Below are positions 50,633 to 57,272 of a stretch of 64,000 nt of DNA, one piece after another (position 1 is the stretch's first letter; each line of letters begins with the position of its first letter). The stretch is from the NCBI RefSeq assembly GCF_024521635.1, contig NW_026250407.1, forward strand, positions 1,488,001 through 1,552,000, written 5' to 3'. Under the pieces are notes generated by a model that worked only from the letters and a program-made list of their open reading frames with translations, ran no database searches and was not told the DNA's origin. Source of the stretch: Tricharina praecox (Eukaryota). A program made the translations under genes and the position numbers.

Positions 50633-53113
50633 ACCGTAGTGAATGTGACGTGCCCAGTGGCCATTCAGCCTTGGACAGTGCTGAGTGGCCCAAAGCCATA
50701 CATGCTCCTTCAACTCTTCGAACGGTGGTGGTGGTGTTATCCCGGATGGCAGCGTCCGCATACATATCCTTTGGGTCCGATCAGGAGTCAAATCTAAAGA
50801 CTCAATACTGCATAACTTAACCTACACACCTGGTCATCGACCCCCGCCGAAGAATCGCGATTGACGGCTTGTGGTTGACATCACAAGTCTTCGGCTCCTC
50901 TGGTGACTGCTCATGAACCATCACTCGCCACATCTTTCTTTTCGTCCAGCCCACTGCCCACAGGCTTTCGCTTCCGATTCCGAGGACGAACAGGGAGGCA
51001 GGCCGGCGAACATAGGTGAACACACGGGTGGTACCGTGGTAGGGATGAGGAACTGAACTGGTTGAGCTCGCTGCTCATAGGGGGTTGGACGGGAAGGGAT
51101 GAGAACTGGACTAACGGACACCTTCATTCATTCATTTTCTCTTTTCATCCTTCGTTCTTTCTTTGTTTCTCTCTTTGTGTCGGCGGAGGAGGGTTGAGCG
51201 GGGATGGTTGGGCGTTGAGCGTGGATGGAAAGTTGGAGAGCTGAGCCCCGGGGGTTGACTCGCGGGGAGGGCTGGGCAGAGAGCAATAGGGAACTGGGAT
51301 GAATCTGAAATGCTGGAGATTCAGGCCGGACTTCTGGGATACAGTACATGGGTTTGTTTTGTTTGTTCGTTATTTTTGCTCTTGAGTGTACCTAATCATC
51401 CTGGATCTTCACGTGGTTCTTGAATCTTCCCTTGACTCTCCGCCAGGCCTTGACATGCATGAAGCCACTACCATCACTCGAACCAAGTTTCCATCAAGTC
51501 GAGGTGAGGTGACTTTTTAACTGTAACTATTGGCATGCTTCCGTCGTAAGCTTTACGGTCACCGTGTAGGAGGGCTTCGGAGGGGATGCTGACTCGCTGA
51601 GCCCATCAATTTTCTCCCAACGTCTGTCTATTTTTGATCAGCACCGGCCTTCGTAACTTCACTTCCTGGTTGCCCTGTACTCACCATCTAGGGTCCACCC
51701 AGATCTCGCCAACAACTCAGATCCAGATCCCGGTTGCGGGCGACGGTGACGGTCAAAAAGTTGCCGCTACCTACAAGCTTCATTCGAGCCATCAAGCCGG
51801 CACAGCAGCGGCGAGTGATTTCAGATACCCAGCTCCCAGTACCAAGTTACTAAACCGTTTCGGCGTCGTCCACCAGCACGACTTACCAAGCCGACCGTGA
51901 ACGACCCACCCGCAACCTCTAGCCTCCAGGTTCGATCATACCGGTAGCATTCGGATACCCGCAGATCGGGCGGTACGTTCGCTGGAAAGCCACCCCGTAG
52001 GAACGAACAAGTGGTCATCTTGACTGTCCCGGCCGACTGGCGCGCGCGTGTTCGCCGTCGTCGTCGAGGATGCAGCTGCACCAACACCACCCTCGTCCAC
52101 TGCGATGCGTGCATGCGTGCCGGTCGATAGAACGGAACACCCCACAGCGCACCTGTAGATATGCTATCGCCATCACCGCGATCGGTTAGTGGTAGCTGCA
52201 TCTGCTCTGGTTACAGGTTACTCGGTAGGTAAGTCGTGCGCCTGCTGAGCTAGCTGCGCGGCTGGGGAGATGGCTGCTTTTAAGTAAGTAATCCTAATCA
52301 AGTCAGCAAGCAAGCAAGACATCAGTTTGATCCCATCCGGAAAGCTGAATTCATTGTGGTTACACCCCGGAACGGAGCTGAGAACTTGTGATGGAGACGG
52401 GAATGACGAGGTGACCACGAGCCCAGCGGGTATGCATAGGAAGCCGATTGGTAGACGCCAGAAAGCCCTCATGTGAGAGTACTAGTGCCCGCCTTTCCCT
52501 CCGTTAAAGAACCGAGGGGTATTCCTGCTCTTGACGGCGCTGAAATTTTGGCTCCCTATCGGATACCTATCGATGGTGATAGCTGGCCTGAGAAACGGTG
52601 GCGATGTTAGCTCTTTGGGCCTCGAAGTTGACCGTGGAGTGGCCGCAGTAGGTGTCCGCTTTTTATGCCTTAGCGAATACTAATTGTAGGATGTAGCGAC
52701 CTCGTGCAGTGGCCGGCAAGTTCATGCGTAAGAGGCCGCCATCGAGCGTGGCTGGCATTGACACGTGCACGTGATGGACCTGTGATTCGAGTTGCCGAGC
52801 TCTGGGGCGAGCAGCAGCATGAGACATCACCCGCGTAGATCAAACTCAGGTAGGTAGAGCACGTGAAATCACCGCCGGCGCCATCATGTGAAGAATTACG
52901 AAGTCTTCATTCCCAGAACCGAAGCAGCCATCGCAACAAGCTTGCCTTTCTCCGCATGCCTACCACACAAGTATAGATCACATCTAAGCAACTACCGTAA
53001 TGTGCACAGGAAGGACGAAGTTTTTTACGAAATTGCGCCCCCAGGAAAAACACAGAACGAGAAATGTGACTGATGCCTTTTGAACTACCTATTCCGGCCC
53101 CAAAAGCAACCCT

Positions 53114-54272
53114 TTACTCCTTCCTCATCGAAGAAGCGCGACGCTTCTTCATTTCGGTGCGCTTGCTCTTCTCCTCGGCGACACGCTTGGCAAGAAGCTG
53201 GGTGTACTCGTTCTGCGATGGTGGGTTAGCTTAATGGTCATTGCCAGCATAGACGAAAGCGGAAACTTACGGCAGCATCCTTGGCGGCCTCAGCCCTTCT
53301 CCTCTTCAGGGCAACCCTGTGGCGCTTGTGCTGCAGACGCTGGGGGGTGACCAGTCTCTGGATCTTGGCAGCCTTGGTGTATGCCTTCTTGCCCTCACCC
53401 TTGGGCTGAACCTCACGGCGGATGACGTACTTGCGAACCTGCAGCAGCAAAATCGTCAGCTCTCGAACCACAGTAGGCGTTGATTGCGGGTCAAGCGTAC
53501 ATCATCGTCCTTGGTGAGTCCGAAGAACTTGCGGATCTTGGTGGCCCTCTTGGGACCGAGCCTCTTGGGGTGGGTGGTGTCGGTAAGACCGGCGATGTCG
53601 TTCTCACCCTGCTTGACAACGACGAGGGAGAGGACAGCCAAGTCGGAACCGACGATGCATCCACGGACGGACTTCCTCTTGCGCTCACCGGTGCGGCGAG
53701 GGCGGTAGCAGGAGGTACCCTTGGAGAGCAGGAGCTTGACACGGGTGGGCAGCAGGACACCCTGCTTCATGGGGAAACCCTGCTTGTCGTTTCCACCGGT
53801 GATCTTGAAAACGTAGCCCTTGAACTCATCACCGACGGAGTCGCCGGGAACCTCCTGACCCATACGCTTCTCGTAGAACACACGGACGCGGCGTTCATCG
53901 TCGATCTCGATGAGCTTCTGGGAGCCGTTGGCGGGGTAGCTGTGGACCGAGGAGAAAGACCGTTAGCCGGGAACTCTTTCTCGATTTTTCTTTCTGCCAA
54001 TCGCTTTCGAGCGTCGGTTGTCCCTCATCATCCAATCATCCCTCGTCATCCCGTCATCGCAAAATCCTCCTCTTCACGGTCGTAGCTCCCAATTTCCTCC
54101 AGTTCCTCCGCGTAGACCAGACGAGTACCGAGCGGATGAAGACAACGGGGCGCGAGATTTCAGAGTAGAGTGGTGGCTGAGAACTTACGCCTGCGTGACA
54201 TAATCGTTAGCCCAGCAGCTCTCGCCCACCACTTCACGCGAGCAGAAAAACACGTACGATATTCAACTTCAT
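53114..54272 (-). CDS. RPS6: 40S ribosomal protein S6 (eS6), 5 exons including a 2-nt micro-exon (54189-54190)
   Basis: [67 protein letters not shown]. Exons 54258-54272, 54189-54190, about 53501-53939, 53271-53438 and 53114-53212. Confidence 0.97.
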
Positions 54273-54447
54273 GATGGCGGCGACTTTTCGGAGGTCGTAA
54301 AACTGTCAAGTCGGTGCGCACGGGGAGGGACGGGGGGCAGGGCGGGGCCGGATTGTCGTTGGGGTCGTGCGGAATTGTCGATATTGGTGTGTGGTTGTTG
54401 GAATTGGTGTGTGGAGTTTCCCGGCGAGTGCGCTGTGCGGGTTTGCT

Positions 54448-54491
54448 GGGGACTGCGTTTTTGGCGGCTCAAGCTAGGGCAACTTGTGTGG
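54448..54491 (-). promoter_or_regulatory. Candidate ribosomal-protein promoter elements upstream of RPS6
   Basis: GGGACTG, GCGGCTCAAG (54464-54473), TAGGGC (54475-54480) and CTTGTGTGG (54483-54491) are all also present upstream of RPS16. Confidence 0.5.
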
Positions 54492-55222
54492 GCTTGGCAC
54501 ACCACCAACGACAGACAAAACTTTCACAGCATCGACAAGCACTCAGAACGCAATTCTTTTTTTTAAATTTTGGTAGAGGGGGTTGAACACTTCTACCAGC
54601 TACATGGTTGCAAAAATCAGTGGATCTCGTGCGACCGTTCTGTACTCTTTTTGTCTTTCGAGATGGTGCAGTAGGAGTGTGACGGCTGGTCCCACTTCGG
54701 GGAGGGGAACACCATGCGCATGCTCAGTTTTACTCGTAGGCAGTCTACTGGCGATGATCGATGTTTTGCCCTGAACGGGACGAACGTAACGCCGTGTCCT
54801 TTTCACCATGCGAGCAGGCTTTAAAGCTCGGCTGGCGTTGGACTCTGCTTGCCGTAGAGCGTGATCACTGGCTGACATACAGTGATGGAAATCGAAGCAT
54901 CTCTTCTCGGGTTCTACATGTGTGGATGGCGCATGTCGTCGAAGCGGAGATATAAACACAAAAGGCGTCAGGGTTGGACAGCAGTATAAAGTCACAGAGT
55001 ACAAGGCTCAGAATGTTTCACTACCGTAATATTTGAGTTATTGCAGTGTGATTTCGCATCTAACGCCCAAATCCAGACCCAGAAATGTAGAAAAAGACAC
55101 CATCTTATTTTTGCACACGGAGTTGTTTGGATTATCATTGCGGAAATACTCGTAATCCCCACATGAAAGTGTCCATCCAGTACCAAAGCCACCCCGACGC
55201 CAACCCCAGCAAAAAAACAAGA

Positions 55223-55924
55223 TTAACGGTAAGACTCTGTGTACGGATTCTGTCAGCAGCCGTCCATTGGCGAGACCGGGTATGACGAGGATAGACGTAC
55301 TCTGGTACCTGGCACGGGCACCGGGACCACCGAACTTCTTGGGTTCGCAACGGCGGTTGTCGGCAACAAGCAGGGTGCGGTCGTACTGGACGAGCAGCTG
55401 CTTGATGTGGTTCTTGGAGTGCTCATCGACGAACTTCTGGTAGTACGCGACGATGCTCTTGGCGATAGCCTGACGGATAGCGTAGACCTGCGAAGTGTGT
55501 CCTCCTCCAGTCACGCGAACGCGGATGTCGACATTCGCAAAGTTCTCGAGACCAACAATCAGGAGGGGCTCGTACACCTTGAAGCGGAGAACCTCCGGCT
55601 TCACGAGGTGCAGAGGCTGTCCGTTGACCTTGACAAGGCCCTTGCCGGCCTTGCAGTGGGCGACCGCAGTAGCTGATCAACAACTATCGTCAGCCGTCTG
55701 TTGTCCATTCCGTTCCCATCGCTTCATCCATTCCCATGTTCCCCATCCTCTCATTCCGAGCTATCCACCGTCTCCCCCATACACTATAGCATCCTCCTCT
55801 TTCGAAAATTGTAGTCCCCCCATTCTTCGAAATCGCGAAATCGGGGGAGAAAGCTTGTTGAAAACATACCAGTCTTCTTCTTGCCGAAGCACTGGACGGA
55901 TTGAACGGGGGCGTCGCCTGCCAT
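55223..55924 (-). CDS. RPS16: 40S ribosomal protein S16 (uS9), 3 exons
   Basis: [78 protein letters not shown]. Confidence 0.97.
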
Positions 55925-56228
55925 GTTGTGTACTCTCGATCGATTCGGGGTGAAGTCGTTCGGTCGGTCGGTCGAGGGGTGGCGGTAGGTGTCGGGGGGG
56001 CGTGCTGTCGTTGGAGATTTTCGGATCGGTTCGCGTCAATTGCCAGACTCTGCCGCAATTGTGGGGGGTGCGGCGTGCGAGCGCTTGTGTGTGTGGGCAT
56101 TTTTCACTTGAGCCGCATGGGACTGTGAAATAGGGCTTGTGTGGAGCTTAGCGATGAGCGACGTCATTTACCCGGCGGACTTCTGGGCTTAGTACGACCC
56201 AACACAACGACAACGACAACGACCAAAA
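55925..56228. promoter_or_regulatory. Compact divergent promoter of RPS16 and the RCC1-like gene
   Basis: 304 bp between ATGs. Contains CTTGAGCCGC (56107-56116), GGGACTG, TAGGGCTTGTGTGG (56131-56144), PAC-like GCGATGAG (56151-56158) and RRPE-like TGAAAAAT on the minus strand (about 56099-56106). Confidence 0.55.
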
Positions 56229-57272
56229 ATGCTGTTTTCGTTTGGATCGAATGGAAATGGACAGCTCGGGATCGGACACGAGGAAGATACCCATGTACCG
56301 ACGAGATGTATTTCCACGTCTGTATTCCCCGAAACGGGTCCGCCCAAGTCGCTGGTTGCGGGTGGGAATCATACACTTGTGCTCTTCCCCGGCGGACGTC
56401 TGTATTCTAGCGGACTAAATACGTACGGACAGTGTGGATTGCCTATATCGATGGGGACTTCGTTCTCTAAATTTCAGCGAGTGCCCCCTCCACCTGACGG
56501 TGGCTGTTGGGATCACGTCTCAGCTGGCTGGGAGTTCTCGATACTTGTGTCGACTACGGGTGCGATATTCGCTTGCGGTTCCGGGACCAAAGGCGAGCTT
56601 GGCCTGGGCGACAATGTCACCAGCTGCGAGCTCACACGCATGGAGCCCTTCTTGACCGGAGCTGCAATGATAGCTTTGAGCTCGGGCATGGCACACTCGA
56701 TCGCCGTCATGGACAACGGCGAGGTGTGGGGATGGGGTGCAGGCAGGAAGGGGCAGCTTGGACATCCAATGGAGAAGACTGTCGGTATACCGCGCTGCGT
56801 GCAGATGGGGTATGCAGTTGCAGCGGCAGGGTGTGGACGTGAGTTCACCTTCGTCATGAGCGCAACAGGAGCAAGGCATGCGATGCTGGGGGGCAAAGGA
56901 AGATTCAGGCTTGAGGAGGACACGCCGGAGCAGGGAGAGATGCGAGGCTGGAGGCAAGTCGGAGCTGCATGGGGGAGCGTGTTGGTGCTGAAGGCGGATG
57001 GTACGGTGAAAGGATGGGGGAGGAACGACAAGGGACAACTTCCACCCAAGGGGCTGCAGGGTGTGCAGGAGATGGCAGTGGGCAGTGAGCATGGGCTTGC
57101 CGTCGTGGGAGGGAAGGTGGTGACATGGGGCTGGGGTGAGCATGGGAACTGTGGTCTCGATCGCAGCCAGAACGGCGGCGATGTGATCGGTGGGGTTCAT
57201 GTAGTCGAGGTTCATGGAACGGCCAAGAGGGTATGGGCTGGCTGTGCTACGAGCTGGGCGTGGACTGAGTAG
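56229..57272 (+). CDS. ATS1: RCC1-repeat beta-propeller protein, Ats1/Kti13-like, intronless
   Basis: MLFSFGSNGNGQLGIGHEED start and RCC1 repeats AGGNHTL, GLNTYGQCG, VSAGWEFS, GSGTKGELGLG, WGWGAGRKGQLG, AVGSEHGL, WGWGEHGNCG, AGCATSW. Confidence 0.85.
   Translation: MLFSFGSNGNGQLGIGHEEDTHVPTRCISTSVFPETGPPKSLVAGGNHTLVLFPGGRLYSSGLNTYGQCGLPISMGTSFSKFQRVPPPPDGGCWDHVSAGWEFSILVSTTGAIFACGSGTKGELGLGDNVTSCELTRMEPFLTGAAMIALSSGMAHSIAVMDNGEVWGWGAGRKGQLGHPMEKTVGIPRCVQMGYAVAAAGCGREFTFVMSATGARHAMLGGKGRFRLEEDTPEQGEMRGWRQVGAAWGSVLVLKADGTVKGWGRNDKGQLPPKGLQGVQEMAVGSEHGLAVVGGKVVTWGWGEHGNCGLDRSQNGGDVIGGVHVVEVHGTAKRVWAGCATSWAWTE

Follow-up and report, generated by a model that had tools for sequence, protein, structure and literature searches.

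A two-nucleotide exon in the ribosomal protein gene RPS6 of Tricharina praecox and related Pezizales

RPS6, the gene for ribosomal protein eS6, lies on the minus strand of a 64,000-nt stretch of the Tricharina praecox genome (RefSeq assembly GCF_024521635.1, contig NW_026250407.1, positions 1,488,001 to 1,552,000), which was analysed as a whole and is referred to here as 'the window'; all coordinates are counted from its first letter. We found the first five codons of this gene to be followed by an exon of two nucleotides, GC, which is separated from exon 1 by 67 nt and from exon 3 by 249 nt and is contiguous with neither in the genome. RNA contigs from two public runs carried this dinucleotide between exons 1 and 3, and four related genomic loci showed the same arrangement, bearing out the claim of a first-pass annotation—made from the letters alone—that GC is obligate for restoring MKLNI-A-YPANG. 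Taken together, the evidence makes it very likely that this is a five-exon Pezizales eS6 gene with GC in its mRNA, retained in three lineages; its splicing would proceed by intron definition, with the upstream intron mainly leaving first and the micro-exon being included constitutively.

Reading of the sequence combined with scripted splicing resolved the coding sequence (CDS) into exons of 15, 2, 439, 168 and 99 nt. Exon 1 (54258..54272, with the start codon at 54272-54270) reads ATG AAG TTG AAT ATC, or MKLNI. Intron 1 (54191..54257; 67 nt, phase 0 after codon 5) runs from GTACGT through GCTAAC (54211-54206; branch A at 54207, 16 nt from the 3′ end) to CGCAG, and the micro-exon (54189..54190) then supplies the first two bases of codon 6 (GCC, Ala). 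Intron 2 (53940..54188; 249 nt, phase 2 in codon 6) extends from GTAAGT through GCTAAC (53967-53962; branch A at 53963, 23 nt from the 3′ end) to CACAG. Exon 3 (53501..53939; 439 nt) begins C TAC CCC GCC AAC and is followed by intron 3 (53439..53500; 62 nt, GTACGC..GCTGAC..TGCAG), exon 4 (53271..53438; 168 nt), intron 4 (53213..53270; 58 nt, GTAAGT..GCTAAC..CGCAG) and the coding part of exon 5 (53114..53212; 99 nt including the stop codon TAA at 53116-53114). The GC exon and the coordinates and signals of both adjoining introns, as given in the first-pass annotation, were thereby reproduced to the base. Each of these two introns has a donor, branch and acceptor of its own (GTACGT/GCTAAC/CAG and GTAAGT/GCTAAC/CAG), making both of them ordinary U2-type GT-AG introns.

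Scripted splicing with GC included gave a CDS of 723 nt and a protein of 240 aa with the N-terminus MKLNIAYPANG; without GC, the frame was broken at codon 6 and ran into a stop after 19 codons. Only the model with exons of 15 and 2 nt yields this N-terminus with canonical splice sites. The identity of the gene is clear from exon 3, the translation of which (P0001) matches the Ribosomal_S6e domain PF01092 with 179.5 bits against a cut-off of 26 (E 2.7e-53). All matches listed in a protein search with exon 3, at least 120, carry this domain, and the best of them, P0002, is the ribosomal protein S6e of T. praecox (Pezizomycetes, Pezizales, Pyronemataceae by taxonomy look-up), 100% identical over exon 3.

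Scoring of the composite signal—branch, YAG, 2 nt, GTRHGY—on both strands of the 64 kb returned a single occurrence, at the RPS6 GC, as compared to 0.87 ± 0.87 in shuffled sequence. By itself, the motif is thus not beyond chance in the window, and RNA and comparison must decide. What raises the GC above chance is its location between exons 1 and 3 of RPS6, together with RNA and conservation.

Contigs of four public runs (X1–X4) were aligned to 53000-54450. Of the words sampled from 53100-54400, X1 and X2 contain fractions of 0.57 and 0.54, which is close to the proportion of that stretch that is exonic; X3 and X4 are soil metatranscriptomes. Exon 3 was covered by contigs in all four runs, introns 3 and 4 were bridged by joints in each of them, and contigs likewise supported exons 4 and 5. 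At the 5′ side of exon 3, at 53939, contigs departed from the genome with 16 letters that equal, on the mRNA strand, GC plus the last 14 nt of exon 1. This was seen in three contigs of X1 and three of X2, including one of 60 nt at a depth of 8050. Coming from the other side, seven X2 contigs crossed exon 1 and continued with G and the first bases of exon 3, the C of GC having been placed on 54257 by the aligner. An 86-nt X1 contig (depth 13.6) spanned the junction with 55 and 28 nt on its two sides and contained the same GC. It differs from the window by a T-to-C exchange at 53938, taken to be an error or a variant; an X2 contig with the same junction variant (depth 26) has 18 letters on its shorter side. 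Intron 2 was missing from all mature-form contigs. The abundant mRNA hence reads ..AATATC-GC-CTACCCC.., with codon 6 being GCC for alanine. The aligner left the micro-exon junction as loose ends.

The same data outline the untranslated regions (UTRs). The 5′ UTR (54273..54363, 5′ end approximate) is covered by X2 contigs over 54272-54361, with an adapter-like loose end at 54363 marking a cDNA end, and no splice joint was listed inside it in these contigs. The 3′ UTR reaches at least 53044, where X1 record 1 begins, and X2 record 7 extends to 53000. Two X2 contigs over exon 1 and the 5′ UTR (54257-54361) carry 4 and 6 differences from the window.

The deposited protein P0002 departs from this mRNA. 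Letter for letter, it is the product of a 17-nt exon 1 (..ATCGT) and one non-canonical AC..AG intron of 317 nt, which puts Val6 in place of Ala6. Three further named Pezizales models share its start, such that MKLNIV followed by YP occurs in four models altogether (P0002, P0008, P0010 and P0018, from T. praecox, P. omphalodes—with two models—and Trichophaea hybrida). Still, the RNA contigs have GC and not GT between exons 1 and 3, the implied intron would begin ACGTGT, and transcript-like relatives read MKLNIA or MKLNIS, never MKLNIV. Valine is, moreover, the exact outcome of forcing the donor GT into the exon, and we consider the deposited model almost certainly wrong. A single intron with another canonical donor has an even smaller chance of being correct. 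With 53940 as the only usable acceptor, the only other in-phase GT donors are GTGAAG at +35 (35-nt exon 1, 246 aa) and GTTGAA at +5 (MNYPANG.., 236 aa); both keep the frame, and a model of the latter type (MN-YPANG) is deposited for Discina/Maublancomyces gigas (P0057). Yet both donors are weak compared to GTACGT and GTAAGT, the insert (+35) or loss (+5) they entail occurs in no transcript-like relative, and RNA contigs with ..TGAAGTTGAATATC directly before GC exclude them; neither 54257-54238 spliced to 53939 nor ATGAA followed by CTACCCC occurs in the contigs. The GC-containing abundant mRNA therefore rules out the Val6 model and both alternative donors alike.

Aberrant N-termini turned out to be common among deposited eS6 proteins, in line with the prediction of the first-pass annotation that gene predictors and read aligners would stumble over this exon. 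Among the 13 named Pezizales models seen, only those of Pyronema domesticum and Tuber borchii have the correct start, leaving 11 aberrant ones. Three of the genera were placed in the Pezizales by taxonomy look-up; the others are likewise members of that order. Apart from the MKLNIV-YP models, T. praecox P0003 begins MKLNIVPT and Peziza echinospora MKLNIVANG; other starts are MKLNIFFSDFHS (Sphaerosporella), MWI (Geopyxis), MSRRS.. (Ascodesmis), MN (Discina) and MWLQRT (Morchella). A transcript-like Sphaerosporella protein (P0005) differs from the model solely in its start, MKLNIA. Among 214 proteins fetched, MKLNI(A/S) was intact in 179, and 19 had a different prefix with S or R as its last residue, the outcome of reading through the ..AG/N of the intron.

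P0003 is a second T. praecox eS6 model (219 aa) from a 66-kb contig. It begins MKLNIVPTPANG, a start derivable from the window sequence only with one extra base, reads part of intron 3 and then proceeds in a shifted frame of exon 4. Along with the differing X2 contigs mentioned above, this start hints at a second, nearly identical copy or an allele.

We searched metagenome contigs with exon 3 for further instances of the micro-exon. The scan gave 579 pattern matches, 521 of them confirmed, and the 80 loci kept were sorted by the sequence preceding the Tyr codon. Fifty-six loci read MK(L/I)N(I/V/L)(A/S) without interruption, being either transcripts or genomes that lack an intron at this place, many of them on contigs of tens to hundreds of kb. 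Nine loci had an intron further 5′, eight showed other arrangements and two were cut by the contig end. The remaining five had an acceptor one base before the Tyr codon, and four of these (L001, L004, L008 and L024) shared the AG/GC/GT architecture of the window, in the form ..YAG/GC/GTAAGT or GTATGY and with a branch site in both introns. In L001 and L004, ATGAAGCTCAATATT is followed by an intron GTGAGA..GCTAAC..CTAG, the GC, a second intron GTAAGT..GCTGAC or GCTAAC..ACAG, and C TAT. In L008 and L024, the order is ..AATATC, GTAGGT..CTGAC..CTAG, GC, an intron beginning GTATGC or GTATGT and ending ACAG, and A TAC. The fifth locus, L006, on a 19-kb contig, reads ATGAAGTTGAACATCGC, GTAAGG..AAAAG and T TAC: it has a codon-6 intron only, and GC forms the end of its 17-nt first exon.

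Transcript-like sequences from these lineages agree with inclusion of the dinucleotide. The Tuber-like contigs L003, L005 and L009, 90-92% identical to L001/L004 at the nucleotide level, read ATT-GCC-TAT, and transcript-derived-looking proteins that are 95-97% identical to the L008 lineage (240 aa, on contigs of 0.9-1.5 kb) begin MKLNIAYP. In a tree of 35 eS6 rows, L001 and L004 grouped with Tuber borchii (98/94), L008 and L024 with Peziza echinospora (91/93, below the star threshold), and the window fell inside a Pyronemataceae group (97/98); L006 sat in a basal polytomy. Protein searches returned no named protein more than ~90% identical to L008 or L006. Tuberaceae, Pezizaceae and Pyronemataceae are three Pezizales families by taxonomy look-up and correspond to the three main branches of this order. 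Introns of the three lineages share 35-62% identity with one another, which is close to random, as compared to 76-78% for exon 3. Judging from these comparisons, the micro-exon is old within the Pezizales. The first-pass annotation had named an RNA with exon 1, GC and exon 3, a single-intron intermediate, and RPS6 intron positions in relatives as places to look for corroboration. The first is present in contigs of X1 and X2, the second is described below, and the third is answered by the AG/GC/GT kept in four loci and by the GC fused to exon 1 in L006.

Other observations on this part of the gene arose along the way. P0029, a 252-aa 'protein' called on a Tuber-like contig, is chimeric: the gene call begins at the ATG and continues in a single open frame across intron 1, the GC and intron 2, its ..SQNLGVSYF.. 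corresponding to CTAG-GC-GTAAGT, and it represents a further genomic instance of the micro-exon. Across the 80 loci, the position of the 5′-proximal RPS6 intron varies widely among fungal lineages, with most loci lacking any. It lies early, in or after codon 2 (before ..LNI.), in L017, L021, L036, L068 and L070; in L069 it separates codons 4 and 5, in L035 it interrupts codon 5, and in L043 and L048 it follows codon 8. The first 25 nt of the RPS6 CDS are a hotspot of intron turnover. An origin of intron 1 by duplication of intron 2 was considered and rejected, as local alignment scores stayed within those of shuffled sequences in four of five loci, L004 remaining below the shuffle maximum; within one gene, the two introns are thus dissimilar.

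How might a 2-nt exon be spliced? Because it cannot be defined as an exon, splice sites would have to be paired across each intron, i.e., by intron definition, the usual mode in filamentous fungi (PMC6616335). With only 2 nt separating the intron 1 acceptor from the intron 2 donor, two spliceosomes would not be accommodated at once, and the introns would be removed successively. X1 record 6 (170 nt, depth 127, no mismatches) bears on their order. Its joint 54189->54257 (cut +1) skips exactly the 67 nt of intron 1; upstream of this joint are 21 nt of exon 1, and downstream come GC and 147 nt from the start of intron 2. The RNA is thus partly spliced, lacking intron 1 while retaining intron 2, and its depth amounts to ~2% of that of the mature contigs. 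Its presence says that intron 1 is removed first in at least part of the molecules. Intron 1 was covered by no contig in X1–X4—being contigs, these are no evidence that such RNAs are absent—and no RPS6 intron other than intron 2 was seen retained in them.

These observations are consistent with a stepwise route in which the upstream intron mainly leaves first. After the first reaction, GC would simply terminate a lengthened first exon, leaving intron 2 as an ordinary intron with a perfect GTAAGT donor. No RPS6 intron is longer than intron 2 and no other was seen retained, so that its removal may be the slow step. Inclusion of GC would be constitutive, because any other product is out of frame. 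RNA lacking GC or retaining intron 2 would be unproductive; in the latter case, a TAA follows in frame right after codon 6. The first-pass annotation had likewise proposed ordered splicing, and the intermediate is consistent with this part of its claim. It is conceivable, if rather doubtful, that the micro-exon is real and its splicing follows no fixed order, either intron leaving first and the intermediate merely reflecting slower removal of the longer intron 2. Both introns do have complete signals in the primary transcript, neither depending on the other, and in the case of a plant mini-exon of 9 nt, removal is reported to begin with the downstream intron (as cited in PMC4674806). The form found here was exclusively intron 1 out and intron 2 in, with no contig over intron 1, an argument that weighs little given that contigs drop rare forms.

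Several points weigh against our preferred account of a constitutive, upstream-first micro-exon. Among the high-depth contigs, none reaches 31 letters on both sides of the junction at once; the exon-1 side measures 14-28 nt, because contigs break near the ATG. That X1 and X2 are RNA is a guess, for which the spliced joints argue. Neither X3 nor X4 covers the 5′ end, no contig of theirs extending beyond exon 3, and both are silent on the micro-exon. The intermediate is one contig from one run with a 21-nt anchor, and the steric exclusion of two spliceosomes is presumed. Contigs cannot show the absence of a skipped mRNA or of the reverse intermediate, so that neither the order of splicing, which is only hinted at, nor its constitutive character is quantified. 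In the tree, locus rows were stitched from tblastn pieces and some include intron read-through, and the grouping of L008 and L024 is the one below threshold.

The first-pass annotation had also offered the possibility of an autoregulatory switch coupled to nonsense-mediated decay (NMD), for which our data gave nothing in favour. In such a scheme, skipping of GC or retention of intron 2 would create an out-of-frame NMD target and eS6 would control its own output. Autoregulation of this kind involves an unproductive isoform whose share responds to the amount of the protein, usually together with a conserved RNA element to which the protein binds. The premature stop after 19 codons upon skipping and the in-frame TAA upon retention of intron 2 would suit it, as would the fact that intron 2 is the only RPS6 intron seen retained, at ~2% of mature depth. 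Some yeast ribosomal proteins autoregulate through splicing. However, the skipped joint (54258 directly to 53939) was listed in none of the four runs, bearing in mind that contigs drop rare forms and cannot prove absence. Intron sequences are unconserved between lineages, which speaks against a conserved protein-binding RNA, and a 2% intermediate is expected anyway from a slow, long intron of a highly expressed gene. An Rfam scan of 52800-54700 (E up to 1) gave no matches, therefore placing no known snoRNA or regulatory RNA in the introns. We regard the switch as speculation and a regulated micro-exon as very improbable. Unlikely, too, is a scenario in which the common ancestor of the Pezizales already possessed the 2-nt exon and this exon forces strict upstream-first, two-step splicing, with slow intron 2 removal serving as a control point for eS6 through nuclear retention or NMD of RNAs that retain intron 2 or skip GC. 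If true, an essential gene would here offer a natural and conserved case of splice-site crowding being used for regulation.

With respect to the genomic surroundings, the upstream neighbour on the same strand encodes ribosomal protein uS9/S16 (55223-55924, minus strand; Ribosomal_S9, E 1.4e-32). From the sequence, this RPS16 gene consists of exon 1 (55924-55870), a 197-nt intron 1 (55869-55673), exon 2 (55672-55301), a 64-nt intron 2 (55300-55237) and a last exon of 14 nt including the stop codon (55236-55223), all on the minus strand. RPS16 and RPS6 are thus tandem ribosomal protein genes, ~850 nt apart. Divergent from this pair, a long open frame on the plus strand (56196-57272) encodes a protein with RCC1 repeats (RCC1-like domain; WD40_RLD, E 2.4e-50). 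RPS6 intron 2 (53940-54188) and RPS16 intron 1 (55673-55869) each contain a purine-rich tract of ~80 nt (74% and 78% purine) with repeated GGATG/GGGA, and the 11-mer AAGAGGAGGAT is common to both. The alignment of the tracts was not significant (score 22 versus 17 ± 2.4 in shuffles, maximum 27), and the resemblance may reflect a shared intronic enhancer or chance.

Exons of one or two bases mark the physical limit of what a spliceosome can leave behind. The RPS6 case contributes one of 2 nt, located in a housekeeping gene that is essential and very highly expressed, and conserved in three families of filamentous ascomycetes belonging to an early-diverging order. A natural control allele type is available in L006, where GC is fused to exon 1. 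Together with the splicing intermediate, it makes the order and kinetics of splicing around an undefinable exon directly testable in culturable fungi. On the practical side, the public eS6 records of most sequenced Pezizales have a wrong residue or a wrong N-terminus (11 of the 13 named models seen), turning the RPS6 GC into a clear test case for annotation pipelines and spliced aligners.

The RPS6 GC belongs to a known, but very rare, kind of feature: ultra-short exons. Our literature searches turned up no description of a 2-nt exon, and none that connects micro-exons to Pezizomycetes or RPS6; subscription journals and supplementary micro-exon catalogues, which may hold 2-nt cases, were outside this search. 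Stwintrons, to which the first-pass annotation had likened the arrangement, are defined by an internal intron that interrupts the donor, branch or acceptor of an external one, with nothing left between them (PMC6616335). The resemblance extends to adjacent U2-type introns in a Pezizomycotina gene, consecutive removal and intron definition. In RPS6, by contrast, none of the six signals is interrupted in the primary transcript, the intron 2 donor GTAAGT and the intron 1 acceptor CAG both being whole, and 2 nt persist in the mRNA; we therefore rejected an identity with stwintrons. The likeness to recursive splicing, drawn in the same annotation, holds to a similarly limited degree. At zero-length recursive sites, which serve very long introns, the first ligation re-creates the 5′ site and leaves no exon bases behind (or the RS-exon is optional; PMC6224609, PMC4674806). 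Such sites share with RPS6 a 3′ splice site adjoining a 5′ splice site and stepwise removal. In RPS6, however, the donor pre-exists, two coding nucleotides are kept and the introns measure 67 and 249 nt; with the sequence being AG/GC/GT and GC retained in the mRNA, a zero-length site was rejected as well. What is common to both systems and RPS6 is stepwise removal.

Closer parallels come from plants and from Fusarium. Arabidopsis APC11 has a constitutive 1-nt exon, reported when the smallest constitutive exon known was 6 nt, and its authors propose intron definition with successive removal (PMC4674806); conserved 1-nt exons are described for plant APC11 and VPS55 (PMC8831610). As in RPS6, these ultra-short exons lie between canonical introns, are essential for the frame, conserved, and missed or wrongly modelled by annotation and aligners, and in some relatives the base or bases reside inside a larger exon, comparable to L006. 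The plant exons differ in having 1 nt rather than 2 nt, in their kingdom and in not belonging to a ribosomal protein gene; they were validated by cDNA sequencing and reporter constructs, as compared to public RNA contigs and one intermediate for RPS6. Among fungi, a microexon in Trichoderma Xlr2 also has a protein consequence, but is alternatively included and regulatory, whereas the RPS6 GC is without sign of alternative use (PMC11121469). A 1-nt exon was published in 2026 for Fusarium CYP621A, where it is presented as the first such case in a gene of a fungus and as the smallest exon known from fungi (PMC12940212). Both cases concern filamentous ascomycetes, exons needed for a conserved protein, evidence from public read archives and failing annotation. 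CYP621A, though, is a P450 of secondary or primary metabolism in one Sordariomycete genus, whereas the 2-nt exon described here resides in an essential, very highly expressed ribosomal protein gene of three Pezizales families.

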